DNA of 64,000 nt. Origin: Escherichia coli (GTDB taxonomy: Bacteria > Pseudomonadota > Gammaproteobacteria > Enterobacterales > Enterobacteriaceae). A program made the translations under genes and the position numbers. Below the pieces are notes generated by a model. The model did no database searches, had not been told where the DNA came from, and worked only from the letters and a program-made list of their open reading frames with translations. The DNA lies in assembly GCF_044647545.1 (NCBI RefSeq), contig NZ_CP172818.1. One strand, given 5' to 3'. Numbering within the stretch: position 1 is the first letter of the stretch; every line of letters begins with the position of its first letter. Of this stretch, positions 29,161 to 29,580 are shown piece by piece.

Positions 29161-29548
29161 TTGAAGAATGAAACTCCCGCCGTTTTCTATATGAAAGCGC
29201 GCGCAAAACGAAAGAATCTCATTTTATCTCTCTTCCCTTTTTTTGATAAATCTTTCTTGTAGAACTTCTGTTGCTTCATCGCGCCGGTTTTTGGCTTAGT
29301 TTGGCCATTCGCCCGTTTTTGATCTTTTTGGCGTCGGGTGGTAACGCCAAACTCACTTTTTCCTCTTAGGCATAATATGGTTTGTCCGCCGGGGGGCTAG
29401 TTTTGGGCGGAAAAGAGAAAAACCCTTTCCAAATTGTTTTTCGACTGCGATCTGGGTCTTTCGGTAACACTTTCCTACATAGGTATTTTTTTTTTATTTT
29501 TAAAAAAAAAAAAAATCAAAAAAAGATAGCCATTGGCTTCAAACAGAA

Positions 29549-29570
29549 GTCCACGCCCGCAGGCGTGGAC
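29549..29570 (-). terminator. Hairpin downstream of pepD (probable terminator)
   Basis: GTCCACGCC-CGC-AGGCGTGGAC perfect stem just 3' of pepD stop; T-rich tract follows on minus strand. Confidence 0.5.
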
Positions 29571-29580
29571 ATTATCGTAA

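Follow-up and report, generated by a model that had tools for sequence, protein, structure and literature searches.

Reference-guided consensus assemblies are known to fail at insertions that are absent from their reference, and read tails typically show a gradual, deletion-biased loss of bases that runs in one direction and ends in homopolymers. The stretch of Escherichia coli DNA analysed here (64 kb, hereafter the window) resembles such assemblies in several respects: it combines the structure of a template with the alleles of a sample, it keeps the template where the sample has no homologue (the cryptic prophage CP4-6), its repeats are blended and its errors cluster at structural breakpoints. 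It differs from them in a one-directional base loss ending in homopolymers, which could not be assigned to a named tool.

The part of the window considered in this study lies between a prfH remnant and pepD, in the dinB-yafN-yafO-yafP-(ykfJ/prfH)-pepD-gpt-frsA region of E. coli. With the end of the prfH-type ORF at 29160 and the stop of pepD at 29581, the gap between the two genes is 420 bp. The corresponding gap of MG1655 measures 56 bp, and the spacer (29161-29580) is thus not identical to the MG1655 intergenic region. The two regions are homologous over the first 19 bp after the prfH stop and share the same upstream rtcB-prfH deletion junction, but MG1655 has 35 bp with a hairpin of its own against 398 bp in the window, and it lacks the hairpin present at 29549-29570 in the window. 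The yafP-pepD interval, which an earlier note on this DNA had estimated to be about 240 bp longer than in MG1655, is indeed longer by 237 bp (1334 against 1097 bp); this is the net result of +363 bp in the spacer, +1 bp, and -127 bp upstream of ykfJ.

The neighbouring genes belong to the RtcB2-PrfH module, which rescues and repairs ribosomes damaged by colicin E3 (PMC9304027; PMC9223846) and is non-functional in K-12 BW25113 (PMC9223846). In strains with an intact module, an accessory cassette is located directly 3' of prfH. This prfH-pepD interval is 877 bp long and is carried by 329 of the 5,426 complete E. coli genomes, in 326 of which it is full length (875-878 bp, 95.7-100% identity); in the genome of H133, only the last 192 bp of the cassette are left. 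In FDAARGOS_497 (locus L001), the cassette is annotated as a 'metal-dependent hydrolase' of 169 aa (WP_001361775.1) and a 'hypothetical protein' of 93 aa (WP_022645226.1). The hydrolase belongs to the YdjM family (PF04307, 35.4 bits against a cut-off of 29), and the 93-aa ORF has no Pfam match. The cassette occupies L001 3550-4357, with the YdjM-family gene directly 3' of an intact rtcB-prfH, and the first codons of the 93-aa ORF overlap the terminator hairpin of pepD.

The spacer and this natural cassette occupy the same locus between flanks that are 100% identical. From left to right, 29161-29420 tracks the first ~320 bp of the cassette in order. The last 57 bp of the cassette are found unchanged at 29524-29580. 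Unlike the cassette, however, the window has 420 rather than 877 bp, no hydrolase ORF or start codon, 67 bases deleted in the part that can be aligned, and homopolymer filler; about 500 bp of the cassette are missing at the homopolymer block. The parts of the region are the following:

28425-28691, + strand: ykfJ-like rtcB remnant, followed by the 166-aa prfH remnant at 28660-29160, + strand
29161-29179, + strand: the 19 bp after prfH, the last homology to K-12, mixing K-12-type and FDAARGOS_497-type alleles
29180-29420, + strand: corrupted left part of the cassette, corresponding to L001 3508-3806, i.e. the leader followed by ~257 nt from the start of the YdjM-family hydrolase gene
29421-29485, + strand: T-rich tail with no reliable alignment
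29486-29523: homopolymer block (T10 A T5 A14 TC A7), where the garbling ends
29524-29580, - strand: genuine sequence, 100% identical to FDAARGOS_497
29581-31038, - strand: pepD, intact, 485 aa

The earlier note had described the spacer as AT-rich, with long homopolymer runs and a composition departing sharply from that of the flanking genes, and this description was borne out. The GC content is 40.7% (39.1% over 29161-29523), compared with 54.3% for prfH and 50.8% for pepD, which places the spacer in the lowest 4% of the 420-bp windows of the whole stretch, although it is not the lowest. The T10 and A14 runs are contained in the string TTTTTTTTTTATTTTTAAAAAAAAAAAAAATCAAAAAAAG at 29486-29525, whose G after the homopolymer block (29525) already falls within matching sequence. 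Runs of A or T of at least 9 nt occur four times in the 64-kb window, all of them in the spacer or in a second patch at 7982-8020, compared with once in ~211 kb of comparison E. coli loci, which is well beyond chance. As to the TTTTTGG motif, which had been reported as repeated, two copies do exist in the spacer (29288 and 29325), but the motif is not enriched over the whole window (10 copies against 13.7 expected), and in a global alignment the two copies derive from GGTTATTGG and CTTTTCTGG of the natural hydrolase gene. Short inverted repeats were found as well, but nearly all of them reflect the complementarity of T-runs with A-runs, and little weight can be attached either to them or to the TTTTTGG motif.

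The relationship with the cassette was established by several comparisons. Tiles of 60 nt taken from the spacer map in order to L001 3489-3806, with scores, from left to right, of 90, 70, 59, 71, 44.5 and 47.5 (33 ± 3 for shuffles), and beyond 29420 no tile scores above shuffles. A sensitive blastn search with 29180-29523 in the 5,426 E. coli genomes retrieved the 5' end of the hydrolase gene alone (74.6% over 149 nt, E = 6e-11). The spacer, collinear with the cassette, at the same locus and above chance, is therefore a remnant of YdjM-cassette DNA.

The nature of the damage is unusual. Over 29141-29420 (280 bp), the alignment with the cassette contains 94 differences, namely 67 deleted, 9 inserted and 18 substituted bases, with G as the base most often lost and a density of deletions that climbs rightwards from 0-3 to 8-20 per 40 nt. 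Near 29219-29222, the start codon (ATG) of the hydrolase gene is destroyed. In contrast, the flanks (26700-28643 and 29524-32100) are 100% identical to FDAARGOS_497, with 0 differences in 4,521 bp (94/280 against 0/4,521, Fisher p = 5e-124), and on the right perfect identity resumes abruptly at 29524. The deletion of ~25% of the bases beside flanks identical to those of a sister strain does not look like pseudogene decay. For the T-rich tail at 29421-29485, the longest common subsequence with the expected reference is 63/65, a value equalled by 11 of 295 control segments in what is a weak test; this is suggestive of a base loss that probably continues through the rest of the hydrolase gene. 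At the protein level, tblastn of the 169-aa hydrolase against the spacer gave nothing significant (the best match, with an E-value of 0.042, is outside the gene), and the ORFs of the spacer have no Pfam hit, PF04307 included. Of the 93-aa ORF, the window retains no more than the first 16-17 codons, at 29572-29522 on the minus strand (tblastn, 94% over 17 aa).

The right end of the spacer contains the strong hairpin that had been noticed next to the pepD stop. It extends from 29570 to 29549 on the minus strand, i.e. the strand of pepD, and consists of 9 pairs (7 GC) with a 4-nt loop and the tail TTCTGTTTGA. It has the features of an intrinsic terminator, a GC-rich stem followed by a T-rich tract, and is the putative terminator of pepD. 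It is located in the genuine 57 bp common to 328 genomes, and appears to be the only genuine functional element within 29161-29580.

The remainder of the spacer has no counterpart in the collections that were searched. Megablast of 29161-29523 against the 5,426 complete E. coli genomes returned 0 matches, and with 29161-29580 as the query the last 57 bp alone were matched, in 328 genomes and with 96-100% identity. As a natural allele, 29180-29523 was found in 0 of 5,426 complete genomes. An exact scan of 100,044 species-representative genomes and 241 million metagenome records gave no hit to a 38-mer taken from the spacer, GTTTGTCCGCCGGGGGGCTAGTTTTGGGCGGAAAAGAG. Distant blastn gave no match among phages and one match among plasmids, which turned out to be a mislabelled 4.9-Mb chromosome with the same hydrolase gene. 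A look-up of identical proteins gave no record of the products of the spacer ORFs.

A second patch of the same kind is present elsewhere in the window:

7975-8021, + strand: second garbled patch, at the 5' end of a yafE-like class I SAM methyltransferase gene

Here, ~170 bp of FDAARGOS_497 sequence are reduced to 46 bp. The match is perfect up to 7974, is followed by deletions only (for example, CAAACAATAAAAGGACAGCGCAATGACAACACAA becomes AAAAAAAAAAAGACACCAATACAACACAA) and by runs of A11 and A9, and restarts perfectly at 8022; the direction of loss is the same as in the spacer. The patch swallows the ATG and the SAM-binding motif of the methyltransferase and leaves a truncated ORF of 191 aa at 8035-8610. 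It falls exactly where K-12 lacks the sequence. A Logan contig, SRR30949806_1166 (L008), carries a full yafE-like gene at 489-1258, with the complete natural sequence and without the poly-A patch, but with a frameshift that results in products of 65 and 191 aa. The 191-aa product equals the truncated ORF of the window, which is a coincidence of the allele and of a GTG start.

The origin of the two patches becomes apparent when the window is considered as a whole. Apart from a handful of bases, 1-37500 is a near-clone of FDAARGOS_497, as follows:

1-7974: 3 mismatches to FDAARGOS_497, all in rRNA
8022-15161: 0 mismatches
15421-28643: 4 mismatches
29524-37500: 0 mismatches

With respect to MG1655, in contrast, 1-37500 is 1-6% diverged throughout, although MG1655 and the window are collinear from one end of the window to the other. 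At every place where FDAARGOS_497 has DNA that is absent from K-12, the window takes the structure of K-12:

7975-8021: 5' end of yafE (scar)
15162-15420: 259-bp ISAs1 fragment in place of the 23.5-kb T6SS cluster, the arrangement of K-12
near 23427: 87-bp segment
28635-28643: absence of the 1018 bp that make rtcB-prfH intact
29161-29580: hydrolase cassette (scar, the spacer)

The remaining 26.5 kb (37501-64000, from the 3' end of thrW) are 100.0% identical to the cryptic prophage CP4-6 of MG1655, including IS30, IS5 and IS911, with the exception of an IS1; after thrW, FDAARGOS_497 has different DNA. Conversely, some DNA found only in K-12 is removed in the window (129 bp, the 891-bp rayT, and the IS1 in crl). 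In 15421-37500, leaving aside the spacer patch, all the indels and three of the four single-base differences from FDAARGOS_497 are located at structural breakpoints of K-12 (15423, 20194/20207, 23427-23445, 28641 and 33209/33217), and the SNP at 16793 is the sole single-base difference away from them. It should be noted that a plain filling of the whole backbone with the reference was rejected, as 1-37500 diverges by 1-6% from K-12; for the same reason, CP4-6 is the only part that would be template sequence.

Four stretches of the window appear from their sequences to be blends that have no exact natural match. The first is the rtcB-prfH junction, which is the K-12-type deletion of 1018 bp with a 9-bp overlap at 28635-28643. 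It has the exact endpoints of K-12, but the alleles on both sides are those of FDAARGOS_497, a strain with intact rtcB. Among the ~2,656 genomes bearing the junction, the best is only 95.9% identical to the window, whereas the genomes with at least 99% identity all have an intact rtcB-prfH; therefore, the combination of junction and alleles exists in no complete genome. The second is the fragment of an ISAs1-family element (H-repeat, yafF-like) at 15162-15420, which is absent from the FDAARGOS_497 region and looks blended because its identity to K-12 is 94% and its identity to any copy in the 5,426 genomes does not exceed 97.3%. The third is the IS1 at 53707-54470, which is found at the position of the K-12 IS1B but is distinguished from it by 55 substitutions and a deletion of 6 bp. 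Its best match (99.5%) is shared by six records, four of which are small (6.85-kb) replicons; one of these 6.85-kb records is from strain EC11, whose chromosome has a cassette end of the 100% type. The fourth is the left edge of the spacer (29121-29200), a mix of K-12-type and FDAARGOS_497-type alleles whose best match in the 5,426 genomes is 94.9%. Such blends would be expected if reads from repeats or divergent alleles were piled onto a foreign template.

A natural recombinant between K-12 and a clinical strain was also considered and rejected, in that donor alleles, without K-12 SNPs, abut every K-12-type junction, and contiguous recombination tracts cannot place donor alleles at every recipient-type junction.

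Taken together, the data point to an artefact of reconstruction. We consider it very likely that the spacer is the scar of a K-12-templated reconstruction at an insertion that the template lacks, and that it does not represent a biological feature of the living strain. The comparison of sequences revealed all the marks of a template, namely K-12 structure at the insertions, CP4-6 at 100.0% identity and blended repeats, and the composite of K-12 and FDAARGOS_497 in the whole window explains the spacer. Further support comes from the derivation of the spacer from the cassette, the directional and deletion-dominated damage, the perfect flanks, the uniqueness of the sequence and the presence of a second scar. 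The sequenced strain would almost certainly be a close relative of FDAARGOS_497, in which both the cassette and rtcB-prfH are most likely intact.

A possible course of events is as follows. Reconstruction on a K-12-like template, which has 56 bp at this site, would fail to represent the 877-bp insertion. From the left anchor, the consensus would enter the cassette, lose more and more bases and end in collapsed runs of T and A; 54 correct bases would be recovered from the right anchor, and the two ends would then be joined. The technical cause could be a consensus built from read overhangs as coverage falls, the polishing of a backbone foreign to the strain, or a low-quality read tail that was left untrimmed, and the gradual loss of bases may reflect either the quality of read tails or the consensus of overhanging read ends. 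Some observations fit less easily. No named pipeline is known to yield exactly this gradual loss, and since the corrupted tract corresponds to ~320-570 nt of true sequence, long reads or iterative extension would be needed to produce it. In addition, the K-12-only segments listed above were removed cleanly, whereas the 26.5 kb of CP4-6 were kept; this would imply that the method treats supported deletions and uncovered regions differently.

An alternative that also regards the spacer as an artefact dispenses with the K-12 template at this site, and assumes that a gap in a de novo assembly was bridged by a single untrimmed low-quality read tail of the Sanger, 454 or nanopore type. The local pattern, gradual, one-directional, deletion-biased and with a homopolymer end, would fit well. 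However, we regard this as improbable, since it leaves unexplained that both patches sit exactly at insertions with respect to K-12, as well as the K-12 junction in rtcB, the CP4-6 at 100% identity to K-12 and the blended repeats. A read tail could nevertheless be the local mechanism inside an assembly ordered on a template.

If the sequence were real, it could be a decayed pseudogene of the YdjM-family cassette, with many small deletions and a larger internal one. The collinear similarity with the hydrolase gene is genuine, and accessory genes do decay, as the truncated cassette of H133 illustrates. Nevertheless, such a pseudogene is very improbable. The 94 changes in 280 bp are mostly single-base deletions and are one-directional, as opposed to 0 changes in the surrounding 4.5 kb, whereas the 326 natural full-length copies differ by no more than 4.3% in sequence and 2 bp in length. 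Moreover, the sequence is in no other genome or metagenome searched, the same signature is present in an unrelated gene at 7975-8021, and the window is a composite of K-12 and FDAARGOS_497 that homologous recombination could not produce.

That the 420-bp sequence is physically real through a single event, with ~70 mostly single-base deletions over ~300 bp, is hardly credible. It would call for something like highly error-prone repair synthesis ending in template-independent runs of A and T, which would have acted likewise at the yafE-like gene. If this were true, it would represent a previously unknown mode of localized, directional mutagenesis.

Finally, the earlier note had proposed three identities for the spacer, and while it was right in regarding the spacer as extra DNA with respect to MG1655 and as a degraded remnant, none of the three identities withstood examination. 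A remnant of the rtcB-prfH module was rejected, as the spacer resembles neither rtcB nor prfH in sequence and matches instead the next gene downstream, that of the neighbouring accessory cassette. A small inserted element was equally discarded: no second copy was found in E. coli genomes, plasmids or phages, the sequence has no true terminal repeats, and the sole match in the search for IS, MITE and repeat elements was a single-copy chromosomal hydrolase gene. As for an unannotated RNA, a scan of 28000-31500 with Rfam 15 at permissive E-values gave only chance matches below threshold, the best scores in the spacer being 15.8-18.9 bits against gathering thresholds of 48-91 (E-values 0.41-10). 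The fold z-scores with respect to shuffles, -0.43 (plus strand) and -1.10 (minus strand), do not indicate a structured RNA, and no homologues of the spacer for a covariation analysis were found in the E. coli genomes searched. The spacer contains 2 promoter-like sites (1.3 ± 1.1 in shuffles) and 3 terminator-like sites (1.3 ± 1.3 in shuffles). The possibility that the spacer works as a non-coding element, whether as the gene of a small RNA or as a small mobile or repeat element, is thus exceedingly remote: although the spacer is AT-rich and intergenic, with hairpins nearby, a promoter-like match at 29249-29221 (minus strand) and a terminator-like site at 29283-29295 (plus strand), such sites are no commoner than in shuffles, the Rfam scores and fold z-scores are unremarkable, there is no conservation, extra copy or true terminal repeat, and the spacer is already explained as a corrupted coding region.

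From the biological point of view, the spacer matters little, as it contains no new RNA, mobile element or gene. For users of the window, on the other hand, it is of consequence that the sequence combines FDAARGOS_497-like alleles with a K-12 scaffold, and that it probably misrepresents the gene content of the real strain. The features concerned are the 'prfH remnant', the missing T6SS cluster and the CP4-6 prophage, as well as the truncation of the yafE-like gene and the frameshift of crl. In particular, the 'prfH remnant' is probably an artefact of the template rather than a property of the strain. Most likely, RtcB2-PrfH, a module that protects against colicin E3 (PMC9223846; PMC9304027), and the YdjM-family cassette are both intact in the real strain. 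The signature of the scar, in which bases are lost in one direction, a homopolymer closes the damaged tract, perfect identity returns abruptly and the site is an insertion with respect to a common reference, can be used to recognize similar cases elsewhere.

A few details of the window concern individual genes. In crl, there are single-base deletions at 33209 and 33217, just upstream of the site of the K-12 IS1I, and no ORF of at least 120 aa is left, compared with 133 aa in FDAARGOS_497. After gmhA, a GC-rich hairpin has lost TTT and G (20194-20207), at a place where K-12 carries other or additional DNA (148 bp). At 23427-23445, the 87-bp segment after yafL, at the K-12 site of rayT, is reduced to ~6-10 bp. 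In ykfM (14550-14557), the window has T8 where FDAARGOS_497 has T7 (L009 31611-32077); RefSeq calls the FDAARGOS_497 gene frameshifted, whereas the window keeps an ORF of 155 aa, and in this case it may be the FDAARGOS_497 record that holds the error.
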